Shown: piece after piece, positions 33,506 through 53,025 of the stretch
Layout of the letters: the number at the start of each line of letters is the position of its first letter
Numbering within the stretch: the first letter of the stretch is position 1
Virus record (IMG/VR): IMGVR_UViG_3300015360_000023
Location: 138,610 to 202,609 of that record
Direction: 5' to 3' (one strand)
DNA from: a virus
Lineage: Duplodnaviria > Caudoviricetes
DNA: 64,000 nt
Notes under the pieces: generated by a model
The model's input: only the letters and a program-made list of their open reading frames with translations
Told to the model about the DNA's origin: nothing
The model's database searches: none
Translations under genes and position numbers: made by a program

Positions 33506-33673
33506 TTTTTACTCAACTTAATCTCGACAAACCAATGGGGGATCTAGTAGGGGGTAATAGTATTATGATCTGGGTTAGGACGTTAGGTCACCCTGTAATT
33601 TTTATTTAATAAGCCTAAGGGACTGCTACTGTTTTCCCGTTTACCTGTGGTTATACTTAGTTTTGAGGAAAAC

Positions 33674-34552
33674 ATGAAACACATAGGGCCTATCCTACTA
33701 TTGTCTACCATTGTACTTGGGGCTTGCGTTCAGAAGGAAAATAAAAACATTGTCACTGGAGTCGACGCTTCCGCCCGGCCTGTAGCTCCTTCTAGTGTGC
33801 CCATTAGCACAACACCTACATCATCTCCACATCGTAATTGTCCACCAGATATGGTGAAAGTCGAAGGTGATTATTGTCCTAATGAAGAACAAGTTTGTTT
33901 GTACAATACAGATAATGATGGCAATCGATTGGAAGGTCCCGGTGACTTATCCAAAGCTTGTGGTGAATACAAACAGCCAAGCAAGTGTTTGGTTGAAAAA
34001 GTACATATGAATTTCTGCATTGATAAATATGAATGGCCCAATAAAGAAGGTCAACTCCCTCAAGATTGGATGACTTTTTTCGATGCGCAAAAAGCGGTAG
34101 CATCTGTAGGTAAGCGACTCTGTACTCATAAAGAATGGAGTCTAGCGGCCGAAGGGCCGAACATGCACCCACTGCCATATGGCGATGGATTTCATCGTAA
34201 AAGACTTTGCAATTTTGATAATCACAATCCTGGTATAGATGTTTTTCAGTCTAAGAGTCCGAACGATGAAGCTTCTCAGAAGCTTCGTGCACTATTAGTT
34301 CCTTCTGGTTCTATGGAAGAATGTGTCTCTGATTTTGGAGTACATGATATGTCAGGCAATATTGATGAATGGGTTATCAATGAAAGTAGTAATGATTACT
34401 GCATCAATAAAACCAGTGGTAATTGTAGAACTGGTTTAATGGGAGGGCACATCTGGCATGTGCGCAACGCTAGCCGTCCCATGACTACGGCTCATGGTGC
34501 AGGATTTGGGTGGTATGAGACTGGAGCTAGGGCCTGTAAGGATGCCGAATGA
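33674..34552 (+). CDS. Lipoprotein with an FGE-sulfatase (SUMF1/EgtB/PvdO, C-type lectin fold) domain
   Basis: SD GAGGA; signal peptide with LGAC lipobox; CPPDMV, FCIDKYEWPN, GKRLC…EW, GVHDMSGNIDEWV. Confidence 0.8.
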   Translation: MKHIGPILLLSTIVLGACVQKENKNIVTGVDASARPVAPSSVPISTTPTSSPHRNCPPDMVKVEGDYCPNEEQVCLYNTDNDGNRLEGPGDLSKACGEYKQPSKCLVEKVHMNFCIDKYEWPNKEGQLPQDWMTFFDAQKAVASVGKRLCTHKEWSLAAEGPNMHPLPYGDGFHRKRLCNFDNHNPGIDVFQSKSPNDEASQKLRALLVPSGSMEECVSDFGVHDMSGNIDEWVINESSNDYCINKTSGNCRTGLMGGHIWHVRNASRPMTTAHGAGFGWYETGARACKDAE

Positions 34553-35226
34553 ATCTTAAAGAGTTTTTGGAGTATAGGAAGATCTGCCCAATCTGTAGTG
34601 ATGTGTTGGTTACTTCTTTCCACTCTCAAAAGAAACAAATCATCAGATATGAAGATGATAGGTTTGTTGTTATCTTTCGACTTGATGCGCTTAAAAAGAA
34701 GCAAATCAATTATAAGGTAGGATACTCATTTGGATTCGAAAATAACTCTTGGCATGTAGAATTCTATTCTCAAGATGATAAGAGGTTTGAAAATGATTCG
34801 CCAAACTTTTTGAGGGATCGCTTCAAAGAACTTGATAAGAATCTAGGACAGTATAAGTTTTATCGTCATTGTACAGGGTGTTGCTGTTACAATTATTCAT
34901 CTCAAGATTTTTATCTTGATTATGATTTGGGTCTTATTGAAGAGTTAATAGTTAACGTAGAGTACATAGGAATGCTTCAGCCAGTTGAATCTGGATTCAA
35001 GGTGTATAAACTTCTGAATGATTATGGTGGTGGTAAAAGTACCATCGTATTCGGGCGTCATCACTCGGAACTGATTGCTCGCTCAGATGCCGGAGTAGTT
35101 AATAAGGGGCCATTTATTACTACTAGTTATGGTAGTAATCTGGATATGATTCAGACGCCCATCATTAAATTTACTTCTAATGAAGAAACAATGGAGCGCA
35201 TTAATAAACTCCTTATTTTCTCTTAA
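34549..35226 (+). CDS. CxxC/FS-tail array protein 1 (large type)
   Basis: YRKICPIC…CTGCCC; ends ERINKLLIFS; ATGA overlap. Confidence 0.8.
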   Translation: MNLKEFLEYRKICPICSDVLVTSFHSQKKQIIRYEDDRFVVIFRLDALKKKQINYKVGYSFGFENNSWHVEFYSQDDKRFENDSPNFLRDRFKELDKNLGQYKFYRHCTGCCCYNYSSQDFYLDYDLGLIEELIVNVEYIGMLQPVESGFKVYKLLNDYGGGKSTIVFGRHHSELIARSDAGVVNKGPFITTSYGSNLDMIQTPIIKFTSNEETMERINKLLIFS

Positions 35227-35729
35227 AGGAACGCGCTCAGCTTCTTGACAGCTTGCATCCACCTAATAATATCTACAATGGTATCTATAGGAACGTCATA
35301 AGCTCCGGACCCTTTGAAATAACTTAACCATGGACGGTCAGTAAATCTGTTATCTTTGGATAAGTCAGCACGAACATCCATGTTGCACGGATGACCATTA
35401 GGAGTTGTAGTTTTTTTTTCATAAACTGAAAAGGATAGGACGCCCTTTTCTAAAGGAGTTGTTCCATAATAACCGTTAATTTTGATAGAAAAAGAACCGA
35501 CCTGAATGTTTTGAGTTTTACAGATAGCAGTTTTAATTTGATCTTTACGTAAATTAGTGGCGTCCGTTATTCCATTGAAGATAATATTCTTCATCTTCTC
35601 TTTGGCCGGAGGCTCGGCCCAAATCCAAGAATCATCTGGAGTTTTTTCTTCTGGTTCCTCAGAATAATCGTATTGATGGTCAGTTAGATATTGTAGATAT
35701 TTAAGGTGTTCTTTGCGTGGCGTTGACAT
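35223..35729 (-). CDS. Antisense tail-motif protein without CxxC
   Basis: Ends IVDIIRWMQAVKKLSAFL; similar ending to 40475..40912. Confidence 0.7.
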   Translation of the reverse strand: MSTPRKEHLKYLQYLTDHQYDYSEEPEEKTPDDSWIWAEPPAKEKMKNIIFNGITDATNLRKDQIKTAICKTQNIQVGSFSIKINGYYGTTPLEKGVLSFSVYEKKTTTPNGHPCNMDVRADLSKDNRFTDRPWLSYFKGSGAYDVPIDTIVDIIRWMQAVKKLSAFL

Positions 35730-35774
35730 AGTAGGTCTAAATATAGCTATTTATTACTAATTTGTCATTATTAT

Positions 35775-36431
35775 ATGGATTCTAATAAACTACTTAAGAT
35801 GGCAGAATATTTTTATGCCTTAGCTGTCGGAGAGAAACTTCCGGCTGACGCTAAAGATCTGAAGACTATTTTAAAGAATCTAGAGACGCTTGAGAACTAT
35901 AACTCTCGCAAGAAGTATGCCGAGAAGAACTTAAAGCATTTATCATCTGGTTCATCTAGAATTGTTTATTCTAGCCCAGATGACACTATCATTAAGCTGG
36001 CCAAGAATGATAAGGGAATTGCTCAGAACAAAGCCGAATGTAACCCAAAGATGAAGTCCAAATACCTTAATAAAATTATTAGTCATGCCAAGAACTATTC
36101 TTGGATGGAGACTCACTTTTTAGACAAGATTACTGTCAAAGAATTTGAAGAAATGACTGGTCTTAATTTTGATGATTTTGGGAGCGCCATTAGATACGGG
36201 TTAAAAAATGTTTCGGGAAATACGGACAAAGAAAAACCAGAGAACTTCGACAAAGTTGAGAAGTCCGGAATATATAAGGAGATGAAAAAAATCGGCAATC
36301 AGTTCAAACTGATGCCCGGCGACCTAGCCAGAATCTCCTCATGGGGTACCAAAGATGGTAAACCAGTTTTGATTGATGCGGGTCTTACGAAAGACGTCTT
36401 CGCAGAATTCTATGAATCTTCCTCCTCTTAA
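35775..36431 (+). CDS. Atypical protein-kinase-fold protein
   Basis: GSSRIVY (Gly loop), IIKLA (Lys), QNKAE (alphaC Glu), GDL…SWG (catalytic loop), PVLIDAG (DFG-like). Confidence 0.6.
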   Translation: MDSNKLLKMAEYFYALAVGEKLPADAKDLKTILKNLETLENYNSRKKYAEKNLKHLSSGSSRIVYSSPDDTIIKLAKNDKGIAQNKAECNPKMKSKYLNKIISHAKNYSWMETHFLDKITVKEFEEMTGLNFDDFGSAIRYGLKNVSGNTDKEKPENFDKVEKSGIYKEMKKIGNQFKLMPGDLARISSWGTKDGKPVLIDAGLTKDVFAEFYESSSS

Positions 36432-37023
36432 ATTCCATTCTTTCAAAGAAGCTATTAGCTATAAAACTGTTTGCCCTCTGTGTACTAATGCATTACACAT
36501 CAACGATAGGGATTTAGCAACCGACTATCGCCGCTCAGATTGTGGATTGAAGGAAAGACTTTCTTTTCATGTTAATCAAAGAGAGCAGGACACGATCACT
36601 ATAGATCCAGAGACAGATGAGGTAGAGCTAGTTCTATCTGATAGAATATCTGATGAAGTACTTCAGTCATTACCTCCTGCGACTCAAAAAATAATGAACC
36701 CGCCCATTTACAATGGGATGTTTTTACATGGGCTAACTATTGATTGTAAGAGTTGTTGTCAATATAGTTTTACCTTACAAATTCATTTCGATTTATCTAA
36801 ACAAAAATTATTTGGAATCTTCTTAAACTCTGAGAATGTTAGCATCGAAGAGGGAGAAATGGTTCATGAGATCAAGAACTCTTATGCTACTCAAATAACT
36901 TACTATTCGTATTTTGATAAAGAGGGGGACTCGAAGAAGCTGTCTCTACCTTTAATTCCTCTGGATCTTTCGGAACCTAAGGAGACTGTGGCTCGTATTC
37001 GTAATTTACTAATTTTCTCTTGA
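36412..37023 (+). CDS. CxxC/FS-tail array protein 2 (large type)
   Basis: YKTVCPLC…CKSCC; ends ARIRNLLIFS; start MNLP at 36412 preferred. Confidence 0.8.
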   Translation: MNLPPLKFHSFKEAISYKTVCPLCTNALHINDRDLATDYRRSDCGLKERLSFHVNQREQDTITIDPETDEVELVLSDRISDEVLQSLPPATQKIMNPPIYNGMFLHGLTIDCKSCCQYSFTLQIHFDLSKQKLFGIFLNSENVSIEEGEMVHEIKNSYATQITYYSYFDKEGDSKKLSLPLIPLDLSEPKETVARIRNLLIFS

Positions 37024-37029
37024 GGCAAG

Positions 37030-37740
37030 ATGCTATCACAATTTGTTAACTATAATCATCAATGTCCGTTATGTAATGAGCCACTCAATTTATATATGCG
37101 TTGGCAGGACTCTTTGTTCTTTCAAGCAAAGAGTGTAGAAAGGGACATAATTCAATTTGATGCTTATGCCGGCACTGAAACAAAGGCTGGAACCAAGCCC
37201 GAGTTAGAGGCCTTGAGTGGCGAGAGCATGCTCCTAGGGTTTGAGGGAGATAAAGCGCTCACTGAATTTACCTCTAATGGATTAGCTAATGAAGCTAAGA
37301 AGCATCATATCTATTTCTTCTATCTATGTAATCCAAAAGGTATTAAACAAAAGGGGTTTGCAGATTTTTCCATTTCTCTTTATAAAGGATGTTACTATCG
37401 CTCTACTCCTTTTTATGAGTTCAAACAATCTGAAGATAAGACTTGGGCATTAGATACTGTTAATCCAGATTTTAAAGAAATAGTTAATAAGGACGAATCA
37501 TTTGCCTTCAATTCTATAGAAGATAATTTAGAGAAGGTATATATGATGAATCTAGATCATGAGAAGAAAGAGACTATGCTTTGGTACTATTCAGTAACTG
37601 AAGAGGATAAGAAGGTAAAAGGATTTAGACCTAAGTTATTTGAGAAGAGCGTTCCGTTGCTTTCAAACAGACCTAAGCTAGGGCGTGAGGATAGGGCTAG
37701 GCTGATTGAAAGATTCGATGGTTGGATTATCATGTCATGA
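37030..37740 (+). CDS. CxxC/FS-tail array protein 3 (large type)
   Basis: YNHQCPLC; ends [10 protein letters not shown]. Confidence 0.78.
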   Translation: MLSQFVNYNHQCPLCNEPLNLYMRWQDSLFFQAKSVERDIIQFDAYAGTETKAGTKPELEALSGESMLLGFEGDKALTEFTSNGLANEAKKHHIYFFYLCNPKGIKQKGFADFSISLYKGCYYRSTPFYEFKQSEDKTWALDTVNPDFKEIVNKDESFAFNSIEDNLEKVYMMNLDHEKKETMLWYYSVTEEDKKVKGFRPKLFEKSVPLLSNRPKLGREDRARLIERFDGWIIMS

Positions 37741-38132
37741 GCGATGTAGTTTTGGTTCCAGATCATTATTATAATTGCCCTATTTGTGGACAAGCATGTC
37801 TGGAAGAAAAGATTGATGGGTGGAGGACGGTGCTCAAGACGCAAGGAGCGTGCCAACAATTTATATGCATTAACCCACTTGCGAACAATCCGCTTCATTA
37901 TTACGATCACCTCGTGGATGAGGCTACCCCCAATCGTATTGCTTACCAAGAGTTCTCGATCGATATTGGCAGCAAATATATTATGTTTGCTTTAGATCTG
38001 GTACACCAAAAAACTTTGATTAAAAACAGTGTCAATGCTGATGCATTAGAGCTAGACTTTATAATCGTCCCAGACTTTCCAACTCTTGGCTCCCTCAAAA
38101 AGAAGATTAGAACAGCAATTACATTCTCATGA
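37737..38132 (+). CDS. CxxC/FS-tail array protein 4
   Basis: ATGA overlap start; CPICG; ends [17 protein letters not shown]. Confidence 0.8.
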
Positions 38133-39223
38133 AAACTGCAACTCAATTAGTGGAATCCTGTCGAGACTTACTTAAAGGTCTTGAGGATATGATTCCCATT
38201 AAAAATCATCAGAATAGGTTGGAGGAGATTGATGAACGCTCCAGCAACCCTAACTTTTGGACTAATACTAATGAAGCTACTAAGCTCATGAAAGAGCGTC
38301 AGAAAGTATCTGATATTCTTTCTTTTATGAAGGGTGCCCAGGACCAGGTAGCTTTCTTCGTAGAGGTGTATGACAATATGGCCGAAGAGCTGGAGGCCAT
38401 GAAGCCTGAACTATCTCTTTTAGAGTCGTCTATGGCTGATTTTGAGTTCCGTCAGATGCTCAAGGAGCCTATTGATGAGAGCCCCGCCATTATGACCATT
38501 TCTGCCGGCGCAGGAGGCCTTGAGGCAGCCAATTGGGTTACCATGCTCCTCCGCATGTACTCCCGCTATGCTGATTCTTTTAAATTCAAAGTAGAGCTAT
38601 TGGATATGAAGCCTTCTGAGGAACATAGCTCTATTTGTACAGATTCAGTCTCTATCAGGATAGATGGCCCTTATGCTTACGGCTTTCTAAGGGGCGAGGC
38701 CGGTGTCCATCGACTTATCCGCAACTCCCCATTCAATTCAGGCGATGCCCGTCATACCTCCTTTGCAGCCGTAGCCGTCACGCCCGACATTGAAGATACC
38801 ATTGAGGTAGTGATAAATGAAAAAGATATTGAGATTACTACTATGCGAGCTTCCGGTGCTGGTGGTCAGAATGTTAACAAAGTAGAGAGTGCCGTTCGTC
38901 TCAAGCACATTCCTACTGGAATCGTCATCAACTCTCGTTCAGAACGAGACCAACATACCAACCGCCGCCTCGCCATGAAGATGCTTAAGGCGAAGTTGTA
39001 TGATTTAGAGATGCGAAGGAAGATGACAGAGAAGGAGAAGTATCTGGCTAGCATGCAGGAGAACTCTTTCGGCAACCAAATGCGCACATACACTCTGACG
39101 CCCTATCAACTAGTCAAGGATGAAAGAACCGACTACCAGGTAAGGGATGCAGATAATGTACTAGATGGAGACATCCAAGGATTCATTACTTCTTATTTAC
39201 ATTTTAGAGATAAAATCGTATAA
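38129..39223 (+). CDS. prfB: Peptide chain release factor 2, uninterrupted reading frame
   Basis: GAGGLEA..W..ML.RMY, GE.GVHRL.R.SPF (RF2 SPF), [15 protein letters not shown] (GGQ), ER.Q..N, FGNQMR.Y. Confidence 0.93.
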
Positions 39224-39227
39224 ATGG

Positions 39228-39806
39228 ATGAAGCAATTTACCGTCAAAGACTTCATTACATACAACAGCCCTTGTTTTAGTTGTGATGAAAAAATCTCTT
39301 TCAGTATAGTTTCGACGACCCTACAAGGTCCGGCAGATATTGTTCATCTCCGACCAACAGTTAATCCAGATCATATCTCGGTAGATCTAAAGATTACTTA
39401 TAACCAAACATTATCTTTAAAGATTCAAAATAAAACTAATGCAATCTTCTATAATGATAATAAAGGTGTAGCTGACTATATTTATAGTCACAGGTTATTT
39501 CTAACCAGTAGCTGTAATAAGTGTCTTACTAAAATTGAAAGCCAGTTCTTAGAGTTTAACTTATCAAATGGCTATATTAAACCTGTAGGTATTGCTAGGG
39601 AGTCTCTCATTGTATCAGATGCTACACATAGATATCACGTGTATTCTACGACCATTAGCGATAAGAGTGTAATTACTATGGATAGGATTGATAAGCCAAT
39701 TCCTATCTCTCCAGTCCGCATTGAAACACCACTGCTCCCCTTATATAGGTTTAAGGATCGCCAGCATTTTATTAACAAGATGAAGACATTTTTGATATTC
39801 TCATGA
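39228..39806 (+). CDS. CxxC/FS-tail array protein 5 (large type)
   Basis: YNSPCFSC…CNKC; ends NKMKTFLIFS; start MKQF at 39228. Confidence 0.8.
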   Translation: MKQFTVKDFITYNSPCFSCDEKISFSIVSTTLQGPADIVHLRPTVNPDHISVDLKITYNQTLSLKIQNKTNAIFYNDNKGVADYIYSHRLFLTSSCNKCLTKIESQFLEFNLSNGYIKPVGIARESLIVSDATHRYHVYSTTISDKSVITMDRIDKPIPISPVRIETPLLPLYRFKDRQHFINKMKTFLIFS

Positions 39807-40480
39807 ATTTATTAGACATTTTATCCTATCGAACCCGCTGTATGATATGTGACCGCAAGCTGGAGATGAAGTCTTTGGATTTGGCCGGCGTCAACATAAC
39901 AAGAACTCAAGAAGGCCTTTATGTTGAGGTAGGAAGTAAAGATAAAGATTATGCTGTCTATTTCAAGTATGATGGCTCTTATGAGAGAATGAAGAAGTGG
40001 AATAGTATGTATGTTAGGCCACTATCTATCCTCAAAGAATGTCCTAAATGTATTCCCAAGGTTGACTTGGTGGAAGATGTAGTTTTAACTGGCATCCCCA
40101 AGGCGCCCTCAACCATTATCCTCAAGGCTAGGAGCGTGGGCATGACAACAATGCATGGGGTCATGTCCCAGTTCTTAGTGGATACCACCTTAAAGTCTCT
40201 GAAGGATAAGCGATGCGCTTATACCTTTGACCTGTTTGGGGACGCTGAGGGTAACTTTGACTGCCAGCTAAACTGGGAGGACATTAGTTTCCACACTAAG
40301 AGAGAGTTCCATCAAATCAAGACGAACTTCAAAGAAGACACTACTAGTATCAAGAGCGGCGCTTTTAACGGCACCCTTGATGACATCATTAGAATGAATG
40401 TTCCGGCCGTTAAAACCAACACCATTCCTACTACAGATAAATTGATTGAAAAAATTAAGTTGTATAACTTATTCTCATGA
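39803..40480 (+). CDS. CxxC/FS-tail array protein 6 (large type)
   Basis: YRTRCMIC…CPKC; ends EKIKLYNLFS. Confidence 0.8.
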   Translation: MNLLDILSYRTRCMICDRKLEMKSLDLAGVNITRTQEGLYVEVGSKDKDYAVYFKYDGSYERMKKWNSMYVRPLSILKECPKCIPKVDLVEDVVLTGIPKAPSTIILKARSVGMTTMHGVMSQFLVDTTLKSLKDKRCAYTFDLFGDAEGNFDCQLNWEDISFHTKREFHQIKTNFKEDTTSIKSGAFNGTLDDIIRMNVPAVKTNTIPTTDKLIEKIKLYNLFS

Positions 40481-40912
40481 GAATATCTTCAAATTATCTA
40501 ATCTTTTCAAATACATAATGATGTCAGTTAGATTTTTCATTCTGATTTTATAATTTGGATTGAGGTTAACCCAATATTGATTTTTGAATAACTTACTATC
40601 TAGTTTAATATTGCGTAAGACTTTATTTTTGCCGGTGCTAGTAACTTCATAAATGGCAACACGGAAGCCGCCATACTCTCTTAGTAGTTGACGGTCTCTA
40701 TAAGCAGAGAGGGAGGGGAACAAGATTCGTACCTTGTACATTCCTATCTTAATTTGGTTCTCCACAAATGTATAGCTCTCAGAGTCAGGAAGTTTAGTTA
40801 CTTCTTGAACCTTAGCCTCACGGAGAGCCCGCTTAATCATGTTCTTAGATACTTTGCCTTTGCTGAAATCTAAGATCGTCCTAAATTCCTGCTTACCTTT
40901 AATCAAACTCAT
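40475..40912 (-). CDS. Antisense tail-motif protein without CxxC
   Basis: Ends LTDIIMYLKRLDNLKIFS; its TTCTCATGA end is shared palindromically with protein 6. Confidence 0.75.
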   Translation of the reverse strand: MSLIKGKQEFRTILDFSKGKVSKNMIKRALREAKVQEVTKLPDSESYTFVENQIKIGMYKVRILFPSLSAYRDRQLLREYGGFRVAIYEVTSTGKNKVLRNIKLDSKLFKNQYWVNLNPNYKIRMKNLTDIIMYLKRLDNLKIFS

Positions 40913-41181
40913 CTTTGTAATTCATTCCCTCCGAAGACCATGAAGTTATCAGTTATAACTAGCATTGCGCTCTCGGATATCTCATCATCGTGTAGCATTC
41001 CATAGATAGCTCCACCTACACATAATGCTACGTTATCTACTCTTTCACCATATCTAAAGTAAGTTCCGAAGGCTAACTTGCCCTCTTGTAAAAGCTCAAG
41101 ATGGTAGCCGATGTCAGATTTAAGAATTCTCAGAGAGTTGCGCCCGTCGAGGGCGTGTGTTACAATGATTATTGCGTTCAT
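40909..41181 (-). CDS. Hypothetical protein
   Basis: ATGA-coupled to 40475..40912. Confidence 0.6.
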   Translation of the reverse strand: MNAIIIVTHALDGRNSLRILKSDIGYHLELLQEGKLAFGTYFRYGERVDNVALCVGGAIYGMLHDDEISESAMLVITDNFMVFGGNELQR

Positions 41182-41195
41182 AATAGGTATATAAC

Positions 41196-41516
41196 ATGGA
41201 TCGTTTCTGTCCCATCTGTAATAAAAAACTCACCGTGCAGCTCATGATTCAGTACAACGATTATTTTTGTAACGCCGCTAAGGACCATCATTTTAGTGAG
41301 CGCGTGGTTGGTGAGGAGCGTAAGATGGTGAAGTTCCGTGTTAGCTCTGGTAAGCAACGTTTGTACTGTAAGTTTGATTATGGCAACGGCTACTCCGAGA
41401 TTTGGGAAGGCGCGGAGAATGCAAATAGGGTAAGAGTGGAGCAGGTTTTTGAGCCTAATTACTCTAGTGTAGAAGGACTGGTCTCTAAACTTCGAACCTA
41501 TCTGGTCTTCTCATGA
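41196..41516 (+). CDS. CxxC/FS-tail array protein 7
   Basis: CPIC; ends SKLRTYLVFS. Confidence 0.82.
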   Translation: MDRFCPICNKKLTVQLMIQYNDYFCNAAKDHHFSERVVGEERKMVKFRVSSGKQRLYCKFDYGNGYSEIWEGAENANRVRVEQVFEPNYSSVEGLVSKLRTYLVFS

Positions 41517-41851
41517 AGATGCCTTATCACTGTCCATTCTGTAAGGGACCAATGGTAAACTCTTACTACTATTGGAATGATGGTAGTAAGAATCTAATAA
41601 AGTCTTGTAATAAGAATATTACACATAGCGTTACGTTTACATCTCTAATACGTGATCACGATGAAGTTAATAAGATTACCATTCCATGGGGGCCTGACTG
41701 CTCATTCAGGTGGGCATTACATGCTGAAGAGAAATATAAATTAATCCTTCAACATAAGAAGGGCGAAACCAAGTTACCATTTTTTGAACCAGATCTATCT
41801 AATTATAGGAAGCTTGTCAATAAACTTAAAACCTATTTGGTCTTTTTATGA
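41513..41851 (+). CDS. CxxC/FS-tail array protein 8
   Basis: CPFC; ends NKLKTYLVFL. Confidence 0.82.
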   Translation: MKMPYHCPFCKGPMVNSYYYWNDGSKNLIKSCNKNITHSVTFTSLIRDHDEVNKITIPWGPDCSFRWALHAEEKYKLILQHKKGETKLPFFEPDLSNYRKLVNKLKTYLVFL

Positions 41852-42243
41852 CGTGTATGTTCTGTTTAGCTCCACTTACCAGGGTTGCTTCTCCAGCCGG
41901 TGATGATTTACACAAGATAATGGTTTGTCGCGGCTGCCAAGAACCTAACTTCAAAACGTATTGTCGAGAGCTTTACTTAACTAAAACCGAAATCAAATTA
42001 TATGATTCTATTCAAATAGATGAATTCATCATCACACGCCTTTATAGGTCATCCAGAACTGGGCAACCAATAGAGCAAACTAAATTCTATAAAGATTCTA
42101 TAGGTCAGATAGATTCACAAGTCGACGCTACCCCTCTAACTTACTATCTACCTATTTGTGAGCTTGATTATCATATCAAGCTGCCCCTCAATGACCTTGG
42201 CGCCTTCAAGCGCAAACTTAAACTTTGGACCATCTTCAGTTAA
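41848..42243 (+). CDS. CxxC/FS-tail array protein 9
   Basis: CMFC…CRGC; ends RKLKLWTIFS (Ser encoded by AGT). Confidence 0.82.
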   Translation: MTCMFCLAPLTRVASPAGDDLHKIMVCRGCQEPNFKTYCRELYLTKTEIKLYDSIQIDEFIITRLYRSSRTGQPIEQTKFYKDSIGQIDSQVDATPLTYYLPICELDYHIKLPLNDLGAFKRKLKLWTIFS

Positions 42244-42275
42244 CGTAGTAATTTGTAGGGGTTATATACCCCTAT

Positions 42276-42641
42276 ATGGATGATACGCCTACATGTCCAA
42301 TTTGCGGAAATAAAATGCGCACGGTTAATCTTGATAACAAGTTACTTCATATTATCAAAAAGCAAGCTAATTATGTAGAAAGAACCTGTGTTAATGGAAT
42401 GAATCATAGCTTGCGGCTTTTTGCTGATAAAGCTACTGGTCAGGTAGACTTTATCAACCTATCTTTGAATCCTAAGTATTCTAAATACCTAGAGATAGAT
42501 TTTATTAACTCAAAATGTCGAATTAATTGCATGAAGGAAGGTAAGCCAGAGTACATTGAAATACCTAAGATGATTATCCCTGATTTCCCTTTACTAGAGA
42601 AACTTAAGGAACGTGTTAACCTCTACGTAGTATTTTCCTAA
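42276..42641 (+). CDS. CxxC/FS-tail array protein 10
   Basis: CPIC; ends PDFP.LEKLKERVNLYVVFS. Confidence 0.82.
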   Translation: MDDTPTCPICGNKMRTVNLDNKLLHIIKKQANYVERTCVNGMNHSLRLFADKATGQVDFINLSLNPKYSKYLEIDFINSKCRINCMKEGKPEYIEIPKMIIPDFPLLEKLKERVNLYVVFS

Positions 42642-42973
42642 TGTACACACAATGCGTTTTATGTAAAGCAGAGCCATTAGAGCATGTTGATAATGGGTGG
42701 TTTTATACTAAGCTTTGTGTAGTTTGTGAAGTAGATGGAATGTCTAAGTTTCAAGCTTCTTATCGAAAGAAGGATGATAAGCTAATCTATATGGTTTGGT
42801 GGATAGAAGATTTCTATATTAAAATAGATTATGTAGAACAAATGACTGAAATATCAAAGATAGATCTCATAATACTTCTAAGTACTTTTCGACTGTCTCA
42901 CACTTTAGAGATTGATCACGAAGATCCCTCAGCCACTGCCCGCCGCCTTCAAGCTCTAATGGCATTTTCATGA
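42641..42973 (+). CDS. CxxC/FS-tail array protein 11
   Basis: CVLC…CVVC; ends RRLQALMAFS; TAATG overlap. Confidence 0.82.
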   Translation: MYTQCVLCKAEPLEHVDNGWFYTKLCVVCEVDGMSKFQASYRKKDDKLIYMVWWIEDFYIKIDYVEQMTEISKIDLIILLSTFRLSHTLEIDHEDPSATARRLQALMAFS

Positions 42974-43356
42974 CCGTTGACTTTATCTTCTGCCCATTAT
43001 GTGGCGCTTCTAAATGGCTAACCGATAAGACAGGATCCTGCTCGACAGGTAAATTAACTAAGTACAATTGCAGCGGCTGCAAAAATTTCAAATATGTAAA
43101 CGTCACCAGATTAGTAAAGCATTCAGTTCTTGTCGGGATTACACAAACGGTTAGATATTCAGTTGAAGCAGTTATCAAGCCTTATAGTGTTACTGTCTTC
43201 TACTTCTCAGGTATAAATGGCGATGAGCCAGGCTTCACTAACATTAGGTCTGACACCGGAGAATTGCTGGTATCTATTAAGTCAATAATTACTTTCAATT
43301 GGTATAAAGACGAGTTACTGCTAGACAAGATTAAAAAGTATATATTATTTTCATGA
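42970..43356 (+). CDS. CxxC/FS-tail array protein 12
   Basis: CPLC…CSGC; ends DKIKKYILFS. Confidence 0.82.
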   Translation: MTVDFIFCPLCGASKWLTDKTGSCSTGKLTKYNCSGCKNFKYVNVTRLVKHSVLVGITQTVRYSVEAVIKPYSVTVFYFSGINGDEPGFTNIRSDTGELLVSIKSIITFNWYKDELLLDKIKKYILFS

Positions 43357-43745
43357 TTTGGGATAAAAAAATCTGTCCAATATGCGATAGTCCATTAAAA
43401 GTAGTTAATGGGTTTGATGAAGAAGACCTTTATCTAATGATGTGCCCAACATCAATAGCAAAAGACATACCAGTGGCCCATTCTACAAATTTAGCGAGTC
43501 ATCAAATGACCTATTCTCATTTTGAATTAGAATTTCAAAATCACCAGCCTTCCTATCAAACAGTTAGAGTATACCCATATTGTGTTAAATCATATGTTGA
43601 TGTAAGTAACATTTATATGTATAGAATGATATCCGAACTTAAAATGTACGCTGAGTTCGTTGTCGAAACACCATTCATAGATCTTCCTTGGAAAGACAAA
43701 GAGAAGATTATTGCTAAACTTTCTACCTATACGTTGTTCTCATGA
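43353..43745 (+). CDS. CxxC/FS-tail array protein 13
   Basis: CPIC…CP…H; ends AKLSTYTLFS. Confidence 0.82.
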   Translation: MIWDKKICPICDSPLKVVNGFDEEDLYLMMCPTSIAKDIPVAHSTNLASHQMTYSHFELEFQNHQPSYQTVRVYPYCVKSYVDVSNIYMYRMISELKMYAEFVVETPFIDLPWKDKEKIIAKLSTYTLFS

Positions 43746-44140
43746 ACTGCCCTATCTGTAATAAAACTATGCTGGAAACTGAAACCGCAGGCATGATGAC
43801 CTGCGAACGAACTACTATAAAAGTTCCAGCCATAGATATGGAAGTTGAAAGCGTTCATGCTATCTACTTCTTAAATAAAGAAGGCCAAGCAATCATCAAG
43901 ACTATTGAGGCGCTTCCTTATATCTTCCAGATTCATGATGATCCTAAGTCCATTCGTCAGACTAGAATTTCCAAACTAATTAAAGGATACAAATACGGGG
44001 ATAACGTATCAATGATTACTTTTGGAGAACAAAGAATTAATTGTGAACAGCTTATAGTTGTTCCGTCCGTAGTTAATATACAGTGGGATAATCCTGAAGC
44101 AGTCAAAGAGCGCGTCCAAATGTATATGTTGTTCTCATGA
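43742..44140 (+). CDS. CxxC/FS-tail array protein 14
   Basis: CPIC…C…H; ends ERVQMYMLFS. Confidence 0.82.
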   Translation: MNCPICNKTMLETETAGMMTCERTTIKVPAIDMEVESVHAIYFLNKEGQAIIKTIEALPYIFQIHDDPKSIRQTRISKLIKGYKYGDNVSMITFGEQRINCEQLIVVPSVVNIQWDNPEAVKERVQMYMLFS

Positions 44141-44505
44141 TCTTCTCTACTGATATTTGCCCTATCTGTAAAAGTAAACTAGAGCTACAAATTGTAGAGG
44201 GCAATTATACTGTTCAGATTAATTACTATTGTAATAACAATGAGGTAGTTAGAAATGAATCAGATACCTTTGCAATATCTAAATCACATTACCTGAACAA
44301 ATGCTATCAGAATGGTAAAATGTGTTTTATGATTCTGCCACCATTTGAATTGTTGCACCATGAAAAGAGTAATAGAACGTTGGTTAAAAGTGTCAGCGCC
44401 CATCAGCCAGAGAAACTAATTTTAGATATTCCCTTACTTGACGCGGACTACGGCAATCCCTATGCTGTGCTCAACCGTTTAAAACTCCTGGTGACCTTTT
44501 CATGA
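44137..44505 (+). CDS. CxxC/FS-tail array protein 15
   Basis: CPIC…C…HY; ends NRLKLLVTFS. Confidence 0.82.
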   Translation: MIFSTDICPICKSKLELQIVEGNYTVQINYYCNNNEVVRNESDTFAISKSHYLNKCYQNGKMCFMILPPFELLHHEKSNRTLVKSVSAHQPEKLILDIPLLDADYGNPYAVLNRLKLLVTFS

Positions 44506-44846
44506 ACAAGTTCGAGACCAATCAGTGCCCCTTGTGTGGTGAAGTTTTGAAGCTCCGCAGAGTTTGCGGCGTCAATGTCTTCTCTTGCCCAACCGTAACC
44601 CTCAGTAACCACACTCATTATGAGGTGGAAGTGGATGGTCAAACAAGCATCCAACATATGTATGTTGGCTCTTGGAGCATCGATAACTTCGCCAACTCTT
44701 CTAGATCTCGTATCTATAAACAAACTCCTCATCCCAGTGGAACAGGGATTCGATGGAAGTTGATGACGGAAGTGTCACACATCCGTCCCGACCTTGAAGC
44801 TTCAATGTCAGAGCGCCTGGAAAAACTTATGATGACCTATGAGTGA
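44502..44846 (+). CDS. CxxC array protein 16 with a variant tail
   Basis: CPLC…CP…HY; ends ERLEKLMMTYE. Confidence 0.78.
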   Translation: MNKFETNQCPLCGEVLKLRRVCGVNVFSCPTVTLSNHTHYEVEVDGQTSIQHMYVGSWSIDNFANSSRSRIYKQTPHPSGTGIRWKLMTEVSHIRPDLEASMSERLEKLMMTYE

Positions 44847-45225
44847 TAACGATAACTTCCAGAAGCATCACCTACCTAAACCCTGCCAGTTCTGCCCGAA
44901 CATGGCGGGTTATCATCCATTGGAAGCAATGGAAAGACATAATGTTAGCGTTTACTTCTGTCATCCTTGCCAGGCCGAATACTTGTTTTTCCGAGATGGG
45001 AGTAGAGCTTCCGTGTCGTTATATACAACCATCAAAGACAAAATGTATCGCTGGACTGTAACCTCCGTTGGTTCGGCTCAGCTATGGCATGTTAAAGAAC
45101 CAGGAGTTCCTGGTGTAAAAGTAAATGAAGGAATGTTTACTGTTAAAAGTTTTAGTGGAAACATACCTCAATTGACTCCAGATAATATCAATGAGAAGGT
45201 AAGAACGTGGCTGCTTTTTCTTTAA
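44839..45225 (+). CDS. CxxC/FS-tail array protein 17
   Basis: CQFC…CHPC; ends EKVRTWLLFL. Confidence 0.8.
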   Translation: MSDNDNFQKHHLPKPCQFCPNMAGYHPLEAMERHNVSVYFCHPCQAEYLFFRDGSRASVSLYTTIKDKMYRWTVTSVGSAQLWHVKEPGVPGVKVNEGMFTVKSFSGNIPQLTPDNINEKVRTWLLFL

Positions 45226-45626
45226 AGTGCCATTTATGCGGTACCTATTTAAGTGAGTCGTCCCCAATATGGAATGTTGGAGGCAGAAGACGTGTAGCTT
45301 TTCGATGCCTGGACCAAAAATGTGGCCTCATTAAGGTAGTGAATCGTTCAGTTATCGAAATCATTTTACCAGATGAAGACATAGTATCTTATCAATTACT
45401 TATCTCATCTGGTGAGAAATGGTATCGTATCTGGGGTAGAGTTAATTCTGAGGAGCCAAATGATACATCTATCTCTAATATGGATGTAGGTAGGCCAAAT
45501 GCTACTGGAAAAGAACAGTTTATTATTAATGTTCCTCGTTTTTACCCTCTACACTTAGAAGAAGATCTCTATACTCAAGCACAAGAAATGCTGAAGAAAC
45601 TTAAAAATCTTGTAATATTCTCATGA
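45207..45626 (+). CDS. CxxC/FS-tail array protein 18
   Basis: GTG start; CHLC…CLDQKC; ends KKLKNLVIFS. Confidence 0.78.
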   Translation: MAAFSLKCHLCGTYLSESSPIWNVGGRRRVAFRCLDQKCGLIKVVNRSVIEIILPDEDIVSYQLLISSGEKWYRIWGRVNSEEPNDTSISNMDVGRPNATGKEQFIINVPRFYPLHLEEDLYTQAQEMLKKLKNLVIFS

Positions 45627-46000
45627 ATTGTCCTTTGTGTAATAGAAAGATTGCAGTAGAAATAGATAGCTATGAGCACGCGCCTTCATTCTATTGTAGC
45701 TCTATGATTACGCCAGATCCCCCTGGCAACAATACAATCAGCCATTACGGCAAGAGTTATTTATTTCACGGCGGATATGAAGAGGAGGCCATCGTCCTAC
45801 CTTACAAGATAGTAAACTACTTCGTTAATACTGATTACAAAAAACCCAGAAGCGAAATACATAAGTACCAACTTAAGGATATTCAATATTTTGGTAAGCG
45901 TTGGACCTGGGTAAAGATTATGGATCTTCCATATATTCTTGAGATCCTTCAGTACAAAAAGATGCGAAATAGACTTAAAAACATATTATTGTTCTCATGA
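45623..46000 (+). CDS. CxxC/FS-tail array protein 19
   Basis: CPLC…C…HY; ends NRLKNILLFS. Confidence 0.82.
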   Translation: MNCPLCNRKIAVEIDSYEHAPSFYCSSMITPDPPGNNTISHYGKSYLFHGGYEEEAIVLPYKIVNYFVNTDYKKPRSEIHKYQLKDIQYFGKRWTWVKIMDLPYILEILQYKKMRNRLKNILLFS

Positions 46001-46359
46001 AAAACTGTCCTCTTTGTGATAAATTGTTGGTCAAACAGTCTACCGTAGATGCGTGCGGATATGAGCCAGCTATCTATTGTCCAGAAGAGATAACTCAAAT
46101 AGGTGATAACCGAAAAGCTAATCACTATCGAGAAGACCCCGAGCTGAATACAGTTACCATGTATGTCGGCTCTTTTCGCATTTTAACTAAGGATGGCACT
46201 TCCAAGGTCGGAACTAGAATGCAGTACAAGACCAGACGAGGCCTTAGAACAACCCGAGGCCGCTGGCGATATAAGACTCTAATCGAAGTCCCCATCATCC
46301 ATCCCGATACAGAAGAGAGGCTGTATTCGAGGATTAAACTATTGCTATTACTATCATGA
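45997..46359 (+). CDS. CxxC/FS-tail array protein 20
   Basis: CPLC…CP…HY; ends SRIKLLLLLS. Confidence 0.82.
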   Translation: MKNCPLCDKLLVKQSTVDACGYEPAIYCPEEITQIGDNRKANHYREDPELNTVTMYVGSFRILTKDGTSKVGTRMQYKTRRGLRTTRGRWRYKTLIEVPIIHPDTEERLYSRIKLLLLLS

Positions 46360-46706
46360 CCAATTGTTATTACTGTCAGAAGCCAAGCAGATATACAATG
46401 GATGAGATGACCCGCATCTATTATTGGCAATGCGATTGGCATGGTGCCGTTAGAGTAAGGCAAACCGAAATGCTAACCGATAGTGGAGCCTTCAATGTCT
46501 CCTTAGTTGTCCTATACAAAGACGCGACCTACAGCGCAACTTTCTTTCGCAATTACGATGTCTTAGCCGGTCTTCCTAAGTTCCGCATCGATAAGATTAA
46601 CCGCCGCCCCAAGACCTCAGAGATTATTCTCGTTCTAGATTTTCATCCAGATATTACTCCAGAGAATATCGCAGCTAAACTACCAACCTATATTCTATTT
46701 TCATGA
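46356..46706 (+). CDS. CxxC/FS-tail array protein 21
   Basis: CYYC…CDWH; ends PDITPENIAAKLPTYILFS. Confidence 0.82.
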   Translation: MTNCYYCQKPSRYTMDEMTRIYYWQCDWHGAVRVRQTEMLTDSGAFNVSLVVLYKDATYSATFFRNYDVLAGLPKFRIDKINRRPKTSEIILVLDFHPDITPENIAAKLPTYILFS

Positions 46707-47104
46707 CAAATACTCTTTATATTGAAGAGGCACCAGCCACTATCCCCTGCTGGTATTGCGGTGAGACCTGTTATCCCACTACAGAACCCTTTGCAGATCG
46801 TCATGCCACAGAGTATCGCTGCCTAAGACACGAACCATTAGATGTTATGTTCCGTTGCGTTAAACATGATATCCCGTCTCCCAATGTATTTTTCAATACC
46901 GTTAGAATTACACTAAAAGATATGAGATTGGACCATAACTTCTATGCTGGTCCAAGAGCTTACCTAGAATGGTATAGGCCCGCCAAAGATAGATGCTGGG
47001 GAGGAGAATGGCGCCAAGTCAAAGTCTTTCCAGTTGATGTTATGATCAATACCGATCTTCATCAAGTATATTCATTACTTAATCTCTATAAGGTATGGTC
47101 ATGA
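46703..47104 (+). CDS. CxxC/FS-tail array protein 22
   Basis: CWYC…CLRH; ends SLLNLYKVWS. Confidence 0.8.
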   Translation: MTNTLYIEEAPATIPCWYCGETCYPTTEPFADRHATEYRCLRHEPLDVMFRCVKHDIPSPNVFFNTVRITLKDMRLDHNFYAGPRAYLEWYRPAKDRCWGGEWRQVKVFPVDVMINTDLHQVYSLLNLYKVWS

Positions 47105-47460
47105 GACTCATCTGCCAATCTTGTAAGCACGAACTCATCCAAAATGTTTACTGGAAAAATAACATCAAATATGAAGATAATGTCTGGGAATGTTCCGAAG
47201 GTCACTGCGCCCTTAAAATAGAAGGAAGCAATATAGTTAGCTATACCGTCTTCTTTGAACGTAGCAAGATAATGTACAGGCTATATGCTGATTATAATAA
47301 CGGTATGCAACTAGCCTCCAAAGATACCTCCAGATTTAAAAGAGGCGGTTTCAAAACATCTCTAACCATTCCACAATACATTAATTTAATCATCAAAGAT
47401 GAAATTATACAAGTAGAATACTTAGTAGATAAACTAAGGAAGTTAGTCATCTTTTCATGA
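47101..47460 (+). CDS. CxxC/FS-tail array protein 23
   Basis: ATGA overlap start at 47101; CQSC…CSEGHC; ends DKLRKLVIFS. Confidence 0.8.
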   Translation: MRLICQSCKHELIQNVYWKNNIKYEDNVWECSEGHCALKIEGSNIVSYTVFFERSKIMYRLYADYNNGMQLASKDTSRFKRGGFKTSLTIPQYINLIIKDEIIQVEYLVDKLRKLVIFS

Positions 47461-47496
47461 CGACACAATGTTAAACCGATCCGCGAGCCAACGCGC

Positions 47497-47793
47497 ATGA
47501 ACTGCCATTACTGCCAAAAGGAATGCCGACACATCAATATCTCCAATAATCATTGGAGATGTCTACCTTGCAAAGTGGATTATCGCGGAGTGGAAACCAA
47601 TATCTTCGGCATGATCAACAGCACTTCTTACTACTTCAATATCTATAATGGCCCCAGAGAGTTCCCCGTTAGAATCATGAAAGGATTGCCCAATGACTTT
47701 GCCGTCAACATTGTCGTCAACCTAACAAGTCGCCCGGATATAACCCCTTCCAACGTGGAAGAGAAACTCAGAACCTACCTGCTATTCTCATGA
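47497..47793 (+). CDS. CxxC/FS-tail array protein 24
   Basis: CHYC…CLPC; ends PDITPSNVEEKLRTYLLFS. Confidence 0.82.
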   Translation: MNCHYCQKECRHINISNNHWRCLPCKVDYRGVETNIFGMINSTSYYFNIYNGPREFPVRIMKGLPNDFAVNIVVNLTSRPDITPSNVEEKLRTYLLFS

Positions 47794-48158
47794 GAATCCC
47801 CTGCAAATTTTGCCAACGTCACTATACTCCCAAAGATTACATCGACGTTAAACGCATCAATGGCGGCTGGATTACCTTCAAGAACCAACACGTCAATTGT
47901 CAAACATGTCTGGTTGACTTCTATTATGATTATACTGATAACTCTAAACTAGTTAGAATTAACTATCGAATAAGAAGTAGACCTTACTCAGATGTTAATA
48001 TGGACCTAGCCCTAAATAAGACTTTCCTTATCTTCCATCCCAAACAAAAGACTTTTTCAACCAGCATCATTGCCTTCGATGGTACCTGGCCCGAGACCAA
48101 GCCCAATGATGCTCTCGCCCTAGCCAAACGTCTAACTAACCTATTGATGTTCCTATGA
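47790..48158 (+). CDS. CxxC/FS-tail array protein 25
   Basis: CKFC…CQTC; ends KRLTNLLMFL. Confidence 0.82.
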   Translation: MRIPCKFCQRHYTPKDYIDVKRINGGWITFKNQHVNCQTCLVDFYYDYTDNSKLVRINYRIRSRPYSDVNMDLALNKTFLIFHPKQKTFSTSIIAFDGTWPETKPNDALALAKRLTNLLMFL

Positions 48159-48514
48159 CTTTCTACTGTCACTTCTGCGATAAACGATGCCGACAAACCT
48201 TTCCGGAACTTAAAGAATGGTGGTGCGAACATTGCAGAGTCACCTTCCAAGAAGGCAATGGCTCTTTCGGTTTGGATGGAATCAAATTCTCCCTAGCCAA
48301 TCCAGACTATAGCCATTATTACTTGACCATTAATTTCGCTTCAAGCTTAACCATCTTGTCCTGGCATCGTCCCCCAAGACACCTCAATGAAGACCCTCAA
48401 GCCTATGATGAACTGCCCAAGGAAAAGGTTGTGCTCCGTATCTGGCAAGCTATCCAAGGTGTCAAGCCCAATAATCTCAAAGACAAAATTCAAACTCTAT
48501 TAACCTTCTCATGA
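48155..48514 (+). CDS. CxxC/FS-tail array protein 26
   Basis: CHFC…CEHC; ends DKIQTLLTFS. Confidence 0.82.
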   Translation: MTFYCHFCDKRCRQTFPELKEWWCEHCRVTFQEGNGSFGLDGIKFSLANPDYSHYYLTINFASSLTILSWHRPPRHLNEDPQAYDELPKEKVVLRIWQAIQGVKPNNLKDKIQTLLTFS

Positions 48515-48870
48515 ACCTTAAAGTTGTCCAGTGCTACTCCAAAAACAAAGTCTATTGCTATTATTGTGACGAGGATATGACCCCAGATGATGGTCAACAA
48601 ATCAATGGTTACTTCGATTGCAAACCCTGTCATACCAGATTCATCTGCTCCGGTAACTTCTCCAACCCAGATATTGAATACATTCATTTTACCGTTGATA
48701 GCTATCTAATTGAATTGAATTATGATAGGAATCAAACCTTCCTATTCCATAAGGATGAATCCCCTATGCGTAGACTGCATATGATGGAGTTAGCTTACAT
48801 TGCAGATATTAATCCAACCAACGCTAAGTATTGGCTAACTAAACTATTAAATCTCAAAGCCTTCTCATAA
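48511..48870 (+). CDS. CxxC/FS-tail array protein 27
   Basis: CYYC…CKPC; ends TKLLNLKAFS. Confidence 0.82.
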   Translation: MNLKVVQCYSKNKVYCYYCDEDMTPDDGQQINGYFDCKPCHTRFICSGNFSNPDIEYIHFTVDSYLIELNYDRNQTFLFHKDESPMRRLHMMELAYIADINPTNAKYWLTKLLNLKAFS

Positions 48871-48994
48871 ATGGCCTATAATTTCCTATCATTATGATTG
48901 ATATCAATGATTCTCCTTGATTTACCGAGTGATTATAAACTAACCCCCAAAAATTTCCCTGGAAAACTACAGGTTTTACCCAACTTCCTATAAA

Positions 48995-49336
48995 ATGAAT
49001 TGCCCACTTTGCCAACGCAGCCTAAGACCAGATCCACAGTATCCGTCTTGTCTAACTTGCCCCACCAAAATTACCTATCCTCATTGCACACCTATATCTC
49101 ATTACGAATTTGATGGAGAAGTACTCTGTACAAGCCACCAATGGTATGTCGGCCCCTTCAAACTAGAAATAGATGCTACTGGCTTATCCATTTATAAAAT
49201 CGATGTCCTGAAAACTAAACCAGATTATCCTGCCAAACCCTCTGTCGAATACATCATGTACCTGGATATTCAAATCCCCATTGATGATTCCAATAAAACT
49301 ATTAACAAAATCAAGACTTTCATTCTATTCTCATGA
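48995..49336 (+). CDS. CxxC/FS-tail array protein 28
   Basis: CPLC…CP…HY; ends NKIKTFILFS. Confidence 0.82.
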   Translation: MNCPLCQRSLRPDPQYPSCLTCPTKITYPHCTPISHYEFDGEVLCTSHQWYVGPFKLEIDATGLSIYKIDVLKTKPDYPAKPSVEYIMYLDIQIPIDDSNKTINKIKTFILFS

Positions 49337-49674
49337 ACTGTCCTATCTGTCAGAAAAGAATTAAACCTTTCCGCTATTGGGATGCAGACCGTACTACCGG
49401 CCAAAAGGTGTATGATCAAGAACCAACCTTTCAATGCGAAACAAGAGTCCCATTAAACAATGGCCAAGCCTTATGTCACTATAGTTATGAGGCCGTCACC
49501 AAATATTCTTGGATAATTATCTATCCATTTAGAATTAAACAATCATTAACCCATTCAACTTTCCAGCAATACTCCCAAACCTCTTGGACCCAACTCTTGC
49601 AAATACCTAGAGTTACCCATAAGCAAGCCATCCAAATATTGTCTCGCTTTAAAAATCTAAACCCCTTCCTATAA
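49333..49674 (+). CDS. CxxC/FS-tail array protein 29
   Basis: CPIC…C…HY; ends SRFKNLNPFL. Confidence 0.8.
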   Translation: MNCPICQKRIKPFRYWDADRTTGQKVYDQEPTFQCETRVPLNNGQALCHYSYEAVTKYSWIIIYPFRIKQSLTHSTFQQYSQTSWTQLLQIPRVTHKQAIQILSRFKNLNPFL

Positions 49675-49743
49675 AAAACTTTGGCCAAGTTAACCCAAAA
49701 GCTAACTCGGCCAGAATTTTCACACATATTTTTACTCAGACTT

Positions 49744-52802: not shown

Positions 52803-52826
52803 CCTACATCACCTCTGATGTGAGAG

Positions 52827-52856
52827 AGCCTGCCACACGGCGGGCTTTTTCTTTTT
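52827..52856 (+). terminator. Intrinsic terminator
   Basis: AGCCTGCC-ACAC-GGCGGGCT stem followed by a T tract. Confidence 0.8.
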
Positions 52857-53025
52857 CCGTTTTCCGTATGGAATACTCTTTGCAAGTTGCAAGACCCGAG
52901 CCAAGTTCCGGCGCAACCCACATGAAAGTAAAGGTGGGACAAAAGTGATGTAGCATGTTTGATCGTTCCGCGTTTTCTGCTAGGCTCTTAGTCGTCCCAC
53001 CCTTTCCCTCAGAGGCCAGACCTAC

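Follow-up and report, generated by a model that had tools for sequence, protein, structure and literature searches.

The stretch analysed here (the window) is the final 64 kb of a viral contig from IMG/VR, which counts 202,609 bases and is judged 47% complete. Between positions 34549 and 49674, its plus strand carries 29 open reading frames (ORFs), which have a CxxC motif in their first ~25 residues and share a C-terminal ending. A first-pass annotation, made from the letters of the window, had described them as an array of phage proteins, and all 29 lie where it had placed them; a hidden Markov model (HMM) of the tail matches 28 of them, the one exception carrying a degenerate TYE ending. The phage origin of the DNA is borne out by the capsid protein of the contig, which is 53% identical to gp27 of Bacillus/Lysinibacillus phage G. 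The link to Myxococcus proposed at the same time is not, given this capsid kinship and the fact that the public runs holding the stretch are microbial-mat metagenomes. The same locus occurs in a 498-kb contig (L001/L002) and in two other IMG/VR contigs, of 204 kb (L036) and 179 kb (L037).

The array comprises 24 short members (98-139 amino acids, aa), five long ones (192-236 aa) and one deleted relic. Four starts have been corrected, to 36412, 37737, 39228 and 47101, on the basis of orthologs and of ATGA overlaps. With these starts, consecutive genes are coupled by 4-nt ATGA overlaps at 20 array junctions. The stop codons are TGA (23 genes) or TAA (six), never TAG. The isoelectric points of the members span 5.1-9.6 with a median of ~8, about one third of the proteins being acidic. 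The members are the following:

34549-35226, plus strand: long member 1, 225 aa, tail ...KLLIFS; orthologs in L036 and L037
36412-37023, plus strand: long member 2, ~203 aa from ATG 36412, tail ...NLLIFS
37030-37740, plus strand: long divergent member 3, 236 aa, tail ...GWIIMS (tail HMM E 0.0017); ortholog in L036
37737-38132, plus strand: member 4, 131 aa from ATG 37737, tail ...TAITFS
39228-39806, plus strand: long member 5, 192 aa from ATG 39228, tail ...TFLIFS
39803-40480, plus strand: long member 6, 225 aa, modelled (see below)
41196-41516, plus strand: member 7, 106 aa, modelled (see below)
41513-41851, plus strand: member 8, 112 aa, FL end
41848-42243, plus strand: member 9, 131 aa, Ser codon AGT, stop TAA
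42276-42641, plus strand: member 10, 121 aa, the most conserved ortholog group (60-64%)
42641-42973, plus strand: member 11, 110 aa
42970-43356, plus strand: member 12, 128 aa
43353-43745, plus strand: member 13, 130 aa
43742-44140, plus strand: member 14, 132 aa
44137-44505, plus strand: member 15, 122 aa
44502-44846, plus strand: member 16, 114 aa, degenerate tail ...MMTYE (family HMM E 2e-20)
44839-45225, plus strand: member 17, 128 aa, FL end
45207-45626, plus strand: member 18, 139 aa
45623-46000, plus strand: member 19, 125 aa
45997-46359, plus strand: member 20, 120 aa, LS end
46356-46706, plus strand: member 21, 116 aa
46703-47104, plus strand: member 22, 133 aa, WS end; no ortholog found in the three related loci
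47101-47460, plus strand: member 23, 119 aa from ATG 47101
47497-47793, plus strand: member 24, 98 aa
47790-48158, plus strand: member 25, 122 aa, FL end
48155-48514, plus strand: member 26, 119 aa
48511-48870, plus strand: member 27, 119 aa
48871-48993, plus strand: relic of a deleted member in a 124-bp gap, frame broken, tail ...LPNFL still encoded
48995-49336, plus strand: member 28, 113 aa
49333-49674, plus strand: member 29, 113 aa, final gene, FL end, stop TAA

These proteins form one family. Some pairs of paralogs align over their full length by BLAST at 20-28% identity and the family alignment contains conserved core columns, so that the middles of the proteins, described at first as not alignable, resist alignment by eye only. 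Across 171 aligned sequences, C5, C8 and C25 never vary and 64% have H31; other members have a second CxxC in its place, and the long members carry a second zinc knuckle ~90 residues past the first one. The combination of CxxC with a second CxxC or with C..H is that of the zinc-ribbon fold class, and structure models place the knuckles on N-terminal hairpins. Within the strands, conserved hydrophobic columns alternate with variable ones, Y56, I58, T/S67, I69 and Y/W70 being among the conserved positions. The wide spread of isoelectric points speaks for varied surfaces, and the earlier impression that constant parts are combined with variable surfaces is correct. None of the Pfam zinc-ribbon families scores above its gathering threshold, the best being Zn_ribbon_6 with 15.7 bits (cut-off 25), followed by TFIIB-type ribbons with 12-14 bits, and profile matches of members to the PDB have E-values of at least 0.03.

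The family has no name, as the first-pass annotation had noted, and it is large. A profile of 24 members retrieves 507 clusters (50% identity level, E at most 0.001); among the 150 matches listed, all span essentially the whole protein, 111 ending in FS and 23 in FL. Searches of Pfam and PHROGs with 10 members gave nothing over threshold, the source attaches no name to family members, and a tblastn search of GenBank phages with one member returned no match.

The most constant part of these proteins is their end, with the consensus [KR]-[IL]-[KR]-T-[YL]-L-x-F-S-COOH. An HMM of the last 22 residues matches 28 of the 29 members with E-values of at most 0.0017, and across the whole 202.6-kb contig it matches the array only at E up to 0.002; the next match (E 0.0038) is a 53-aa ORF outside the window, whose ending is not the motif. 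The remaining member, at 44502-44846, ends in TYE, where its orthologs in related phages have FL or YL. FS or FL ends are found in 29 of the 265 ORFs of at least 90 aa, 25 of these being array members and two more lying inside the array on the other strand. Counting back from the chain end over 176 sequences, the conserved positions are -12 (L/I/V), -9 (K/R, 97%), -8 (I/L, 90%), -7 (K/R/Q), -6 (T, 51%), -5 (Y/L, 84%), -4 (L/I/V), -2 (F, 94%) and -1 (S 78%, L 14%). The chain terminates one residue past the Phe/aromatic position in nearly all of the 150 listed representatives. On a helix, residues -12, -8, -5, -4 and -2 face the same way, as they should if this helix rests on the sheet.

Selection on the tail acts on the protein and not on the DNA. 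The K/R residue at -9 is encoded by AAA, AAG, CGY and AGR, and the final Ser by TCA, TCT, TCC and AGT, while the FS/FL ending is kept in genes without downstream overlap. Synonymous sites of the tail codons are saturated in two of three genome comparisons, and close to saturation in the third, with a synonymous divergence (dS) of ~3; the rest of the gene behaves alike. Only the last codon has a low dS, in line with its overlap with the start of the next gene. An RNA-level account of the tail, such as a reinitiation signal, is ruled out by the dissimilar K/R and Ser codons and by the saturated or nearly saturated synonymous sites, the last codon excepted. The comparison of dN/dS between tail and core proposed at first pass could be made in part only: dS is saturated, or nearly so, between all genomes, which leaves dN and identity to be compared. 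Between orthologs, identity reaches 65% in the last ten residues and 68% in the CxxC region, as against 38.5% in the core.

Structural details come from AlphaFold2 runs using the paralog alignment, in which two members of different size were modelled. The 106-aa model (mean predicted local distance difference test, pLDDT, 85; predicted template modelling score, pTM, 0.71) has zinc hairpins at its N-terminus, then a meander sheet, and ends in a helix spanning 92-105. The 225-aa model (pLDDT 81, pTM 0.76) follows the same plan; its sheet is bigger, a loop at 90-126 is disordered and the helix occupies 211-224. In both models the last 14 residues have pLDDT values of 86-93, equal to the rest of the chain, and the terminal helix directly follows the last strand without any linker. 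A Foldseek search of BFVD retrieved ~15 independent models of paralogs from one uncultured phage, with template modelling (TM) scores of 0.58-0.86 at 11-27% identity. The array members thus appear to share one compact predicted fold, in which a zinc ribbon is combined with a curved sheet and a helix at the C-terminus. The tail is most likely the terminal core helix of this common fold and not a loose docking tag, as judged from the models. This goes against the earlier picture of a separate docking peptide carried by unrelated cores, since the members share zinc ligands and a hydrophobic skeleton and are predicted to adopt one fold in which the tail is a confident helix without linker. The first-pass annotation had itself said that a tail packed as an integral part of one common fold, with cores that tolerate C-terminal extension, would speak against that picture; the predictions agree with the first part of this.

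With both models, searches of the PDB and AFDB clusters (Foldseek), VIA-align wide and the Atlas shape search gave nothing above the background of common sheet arrangements. The top Atlas shape rows are clusters of immunity proteins, namely Imm33 (TM 0.68) and TipC (TM 0.61), and TipC2 and TriTu appear in lower rows of the PDB search. Polyimmunity loci and immunity proteins of polymorphic toxins (Imm33, TipC, TriTu) are likewise tandem arrays of diverged small binding proteins, with a weak similarity in shape through a curved sheet and a helix. However, they have no sequence relation to the array and no zinc ribbon, and scores of this size (best Z 6.3 and 4.8) are usual for common arrangements. 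This modelled likeness is a weak lead only. A homodimer prediction scored 0.28 against a mark of 0.42, which counts neither for nor against pairing.

The arrays of the relatives are collinear with that of the window and hold 25, 25 and 31 members in L001, L036 and L037, respectively; a further contig (L038) has a run of ~30 more genes of similar size. At 14100-16887 of L001, the public gene calls are short minus-strand genes, and the plus strand really encodes nine more members with ATGA overlaps. Most members have collinear reciprocal-best orthologs in the relatives, with 30-64% identity, whereas the best paralog within the genome does not exceed 28%; the copies therefore arose before these phages diverged, and each of them was retained. 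Some turnover is visible in the relic at 48871-48993 and in members without orthologs. One small protein family has here undergone an old, lineage-specific expansion, so far confined to relatives of phage G.

Two other genes belong to the operon in all four genomes, RF2 keeping the same position in L001, L036 and L037:

35775-36431, plus strand: 218-aa kinase-like protein inside the operon; orthologs 81/70/71% identical; phrog_4301
38129-39223, plus strand: peptide chain release factor 2 (RF2), ATGA-coupled to member 4; PCRF 9e-46, RF-1 1e-36

The 218-aa protein, which lacks Pfam annotation, is the best-conserved gene product of the locus (70-81% identity between phages, compared with 64-78% for RF2). 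The glycine loop and catalytic motifs of kinases can be recognized in it, the SteC kinase (G-loop, E 0.044) is its best PDB match, and its Atlas features fall near the T7 kinase and Kinase-PolyVal clusters (0.94). It thus resembles a minimal protein kinase, T7 gp0.7 and Kinase-PolyVal being the likely types. The phage RF2 has no internal frameshift, and it sits in an operon of mostly TGA-ending genes with 20 ATGA overlaps.

The gene order common to these genomes runs from an FGE-sulfatase-like lipoprotein through long members, the kinase-like gene and RF2 to the short members, followed, on the opposite strand, by a metalloprotease-like and then a trypsin-like lipoprotein. In the window, the three predicted lipoproteins flanking the array (33647-34552, 49744-50400 and 50403-51173) have lipobox-like N-termini, are conserved in the relatives and are of FGE-sulfatase-like, HExxH metalloprotease-like and trypsin-like kinds. 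Genes for an exonuclease and for large fibre-like proteins are located upstream of the array, as is a GMP-reductase/IMPDH-like gene, and a dUTPase is also found among the surrounding genes. Directly past the array, between convergent genes, the consensus scan picked out one hairpin:

49682-49713, no strand assigned: hairpin with a 14-bp stem, seen in the consensus scan only

The counts of that scan for promoters and terminators were not above those in shuffled sequence. No tRNA or tmRNA was found in the window, and no RNA run is among the public runs listed as holding the stretch. Farther from the array, at 1082-14013, the minus strand encodes several large proteins with E1_FCCH-like and Laminin_G_3 domains, which are probably fibre or receptor-binding proteins. 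The GC content rises from ~40% to ~55% near 51.6-52 kb. This boundary is spanned by contigs of four runs, including two that are not flagged as possible sources, so that an assembly chimera can be discarded; contigs diverge from the window around 53.6-54.5 kb and 56.2-56.4 kb. Among the products of the high-GC part (51600-64000) are an AAA_33 kinase-like protein and, at 58404-59363, an ArdC-like anti-restriction protein (ArdcN plus zincin peptidase).

Among known systems, the nearest is the zinc-ribbon expansion of phage G, of which Iyer et al. noted ~35 copies as a lineage-specific expansion in 2021 (PMC7824862); jumbo-phage reviews mention such arrays only as evidence of duplication (PMC13282480). 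This expansion could be located to gp447-474 plus small copies such as gp32, 34, 35, 37 and 46 (35 matches, phrog_4661 and phrog_13559). Both cases concern related megaphages of ~500 kb with tandem arrays of ~30 genes, and in both a domain of ~100 aa starts with a CPxC zinc ribbon and has a strongly conserved terminal helix motif. However, hhalign aligns just the 26-column zinc ribbon (probability 85%) and not the whole domain, and phrog_13559, the recurring weak top match of window members (E 0.05-0.22), likewise covers the ribbon only. The helix motif of phage G is YWKENDRYLxKIL followed by variable extra residues, with no F-S-COOH end, whereas the window tail is [KR][IL][KR]T[YL]LxFS. Most phage G copies also carry an added N-terminal half of ~100 aa, unlike the window members. 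Phage G has no homolog of the flanking FGE-sulfatase-like or trypsin-like genes, and the BFVD fold search did not return its zinc-ribbon proteins as neighbours. The tmRNA gene of phage G, reported at 352812-353120 (PMC12484599), stands at the start of its zinc-ribbon array (352.5-371 kb region, L004), and in the window lineage RF2 lies inside the array. Both arrays thus adjoin a translation termination or rescue factor.

How could this array work? We propose, with a probability of roughly 40%, that it is a set of small binding proteins built on a constant scaffold and used for host takeover. In each member, the zinc site, formed by a CxxC, a further Cys and either a His or another CxxC, would staple the N-terminal hairpins. 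A curved antiparallel sheet of six to seven strands would come next, the long forms adding strands and a disordered loop, and the 14-residue C-terminal amphipathic helix would lie on this sheet with its penultimate Phe as an anchor. The tail would be conserved because it is the constant core helix on which all variable strands pack. Strand residues facing away from the helix, as well as the loops, would be free to vary, so that each paralog would show a different surface. The genes would be expressed in bulk as one translationally coupled polycistron, together with a T7-like kinase and the phage RF2. Each member may then have its own host protein to bind and either block or redirect, and defence proteins may be among these targets. 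The kinase-like gene and RF2 inside the operon supply a host-takeover setting for this proposal, and the weak likeness in shape to the toxin-binding immunity proteins also speaks for it.

Several points weigh against this proposal. The family, the conservation of the array, the selection on the tail at protein level and the ATGA coupling are observed, but the fold and the packing of the helix are predicted, and a binding function, with its targets, is inferred. The stable collinear orthologs and limited turnover resemble a classic arms-race anti-defence locus less than might be expected. In the tail itself, positions -7 (K/R/Q) and -6 (T) and the fixed chain end are conserved beyond the exposed strand positions, though -7 and -6 are expected to point outward, which hints at a shared function beyond folding. 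Folding alone leaves these two positions unexplained, as well as the strictly fixed chain end and the occurrence of similar endings on other proteins. Two of these proteins lie within the locus on the minus strand:

35223-35729, minus strand: 168-aa zinc-free protein, end ...KKLSAFL; second small family, conserved in four genomes
40475-40912, minus strand: 145-aa Cys-free protein, end ...NLKIFS; stop common to member 6, inside a 16-bp palindrome

The 145-aa and 168-aa proteins are homologous (hhalign 87%, E 4e-6) and do not align with the zinc-ribbon family, and their endings (...RLDNLKIFS and ...KKLSAFL) are kept in all four genomes. A third protein with a tail-like ending is encoded on the same contig 9 kb upstream of the window. 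About 0.15 cases of such endings (hydrophobic residues at -8 and -5, then F[SL]-COOH) would be expected by chance. The palindrome, TATTCTCATGAGAATA, occupies 40470-40485 and is perfect over its 16 bp; within it, two convergent genes each read F-S-stop from the same TCATGA. A toxin-domain identity of the 145-aa protein, towards which its Atlas features pointed (Ntox families, 0.82-0.90, low recognition), found no support from Pfam on eight orthologs and was discarded.

These points leave some room for the array being a docking or adaptor library, the idea of the first-pass annotation, which we consider unlikely. The C-terminal helix, with its K-Y-F stripe and Hb-F-X-COOH end, would be a shared handle plugging into one partner, such as an AAA+ protease/unfoldase, a PDZ protease or a phage hub, and the variable sheet would select substrates or act as a decoy. 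A chain end fixed just past the Phe, while the last residue itself varies (S, L, Q, A, I, Y, G, T), speaks for such a handle, as do the conserved outward K/R and T positions and the recurrence of the ending on the zinc-free family and on one more protein of the contig. Phage G does encode ClpP, which was found here, and ClpX, as reported (PMC12484599). ClpP and the ClpX zinc finger were searched for without success in the contig of the window, which is 47% complete, and in two related fragments; with the three at 42-48% completeness, this result is uninformative. The resemblance to ClpX adaptor tails and degrons (SspB XB peptide, ssrA tag) and to HbYX motifs lies in the conserved extreme C-terminus, the fixed distance to the carboxylate and the penultimate aromatic residue. 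Known docking tails such as the SspB XB peptide are, however, flexible and short and sit on flexible linkers, whereas the window tail is predicted as a packed helix, with high confidence and directly after the last strand. Its most conserved residues are on the hydrophobic side that is expected to be buried. The consensus also differs, and we know of no ClpX, PDZ or HbYX consensus that the FS end matches exactly.

An intermediate view, in our opinion distinctly unlikely, is that the helix serves both as a core element and as a common handle. The ~30 paralogs and the two zinc-free proteins of the locus would then dock to one phage or host machine, for example a ClpXP-type unfoldase such as phage G encodes, each sheet bringing a different host protein. 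Poxvirus ankyrin/PRANC F-box-like proteins and the multigene families (MGF) of African swine fever virus, which are accessory host-interaction genes, combine a variable body with a constant C-terminal element. The likeness extends to their many diverged tandem paralogs. PRANC is, however, a separate domain with a known hub (Skp1), whereas the constant element of the array is predicted inside the same small domain, as an integral terminal helix and not as the separable hub-binding module of F-box, BC-box or PRANC proteins. If true, the handle would make the array a phage counterpart of the F-box/PRANC repertoires of substrate receptors, possibly switched by the kinase of the operon.

For the expansion in phage G, Iyer et al. 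suggested a transcription-factor or DNA-binding role (PMC7824862). Extended to the window, this would mean nucleic-acid-binding regulators or architectural proteins, each paralog recognizing a different promoter, RNA or DNA feature, which seems quite improbable. The classical N-terminal zinc ribbon agrees with it, as do sub-threshold profile matches to eL43, an RNA polymerase subunit and TFIIB/TFIIS-type ribbons, the basic median isoelectric point and the conserved basic patch on the helix. On the other hand, the isoelectric points spread widely (5.1-9.6) and about a third of the members are acidic, the fold searches found no known DNA- or RNA-binding fold, and thirty specific regulators in one operon would be unusual.

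It is very improbable that the K-I-K-T-Y-L-L-F-S helix tethers varied heads to the inner membrane in the manner of MinD or FtsA. The amphipathic pattern, with Lys and aromatics at the very end, would suit such a role, and the tail presumably resembles the C-terminal amphipathic helices of the MinD type. However, the models, with their high confidence and compact pTM, speak for a helix that is packed; its K at -9 falls within the hydrophobic arc, and the helix is not preceded by a linker. Virion-internal or ejected proteins, with the tail as a capsid-packaging address like encapsulin cargo peptides, can hardly be the answer: giant phages do package many proteins, 104 having been detected in phage G particles (PMC12484599), but the genes sit with the kinase, RF2, dUTPase, exonuclease and GMP-reductase-like genes and not in the head module.

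Whatever its function, this megaphage, like each of its relatives, devotes ~15 kb to ~30 retained copies of an unnamed protein with more than 500 database clusters. The array offers a well-defined study case, with its constant zinc-stapled scaffold, variable faces, conserved C-terminal stripe and co-transcribed kinase. If its members are binders, as proposed above, the scaffold could serve as a small natural binding framework. More generally, the array could help to show what giant phages do with large paralog families.

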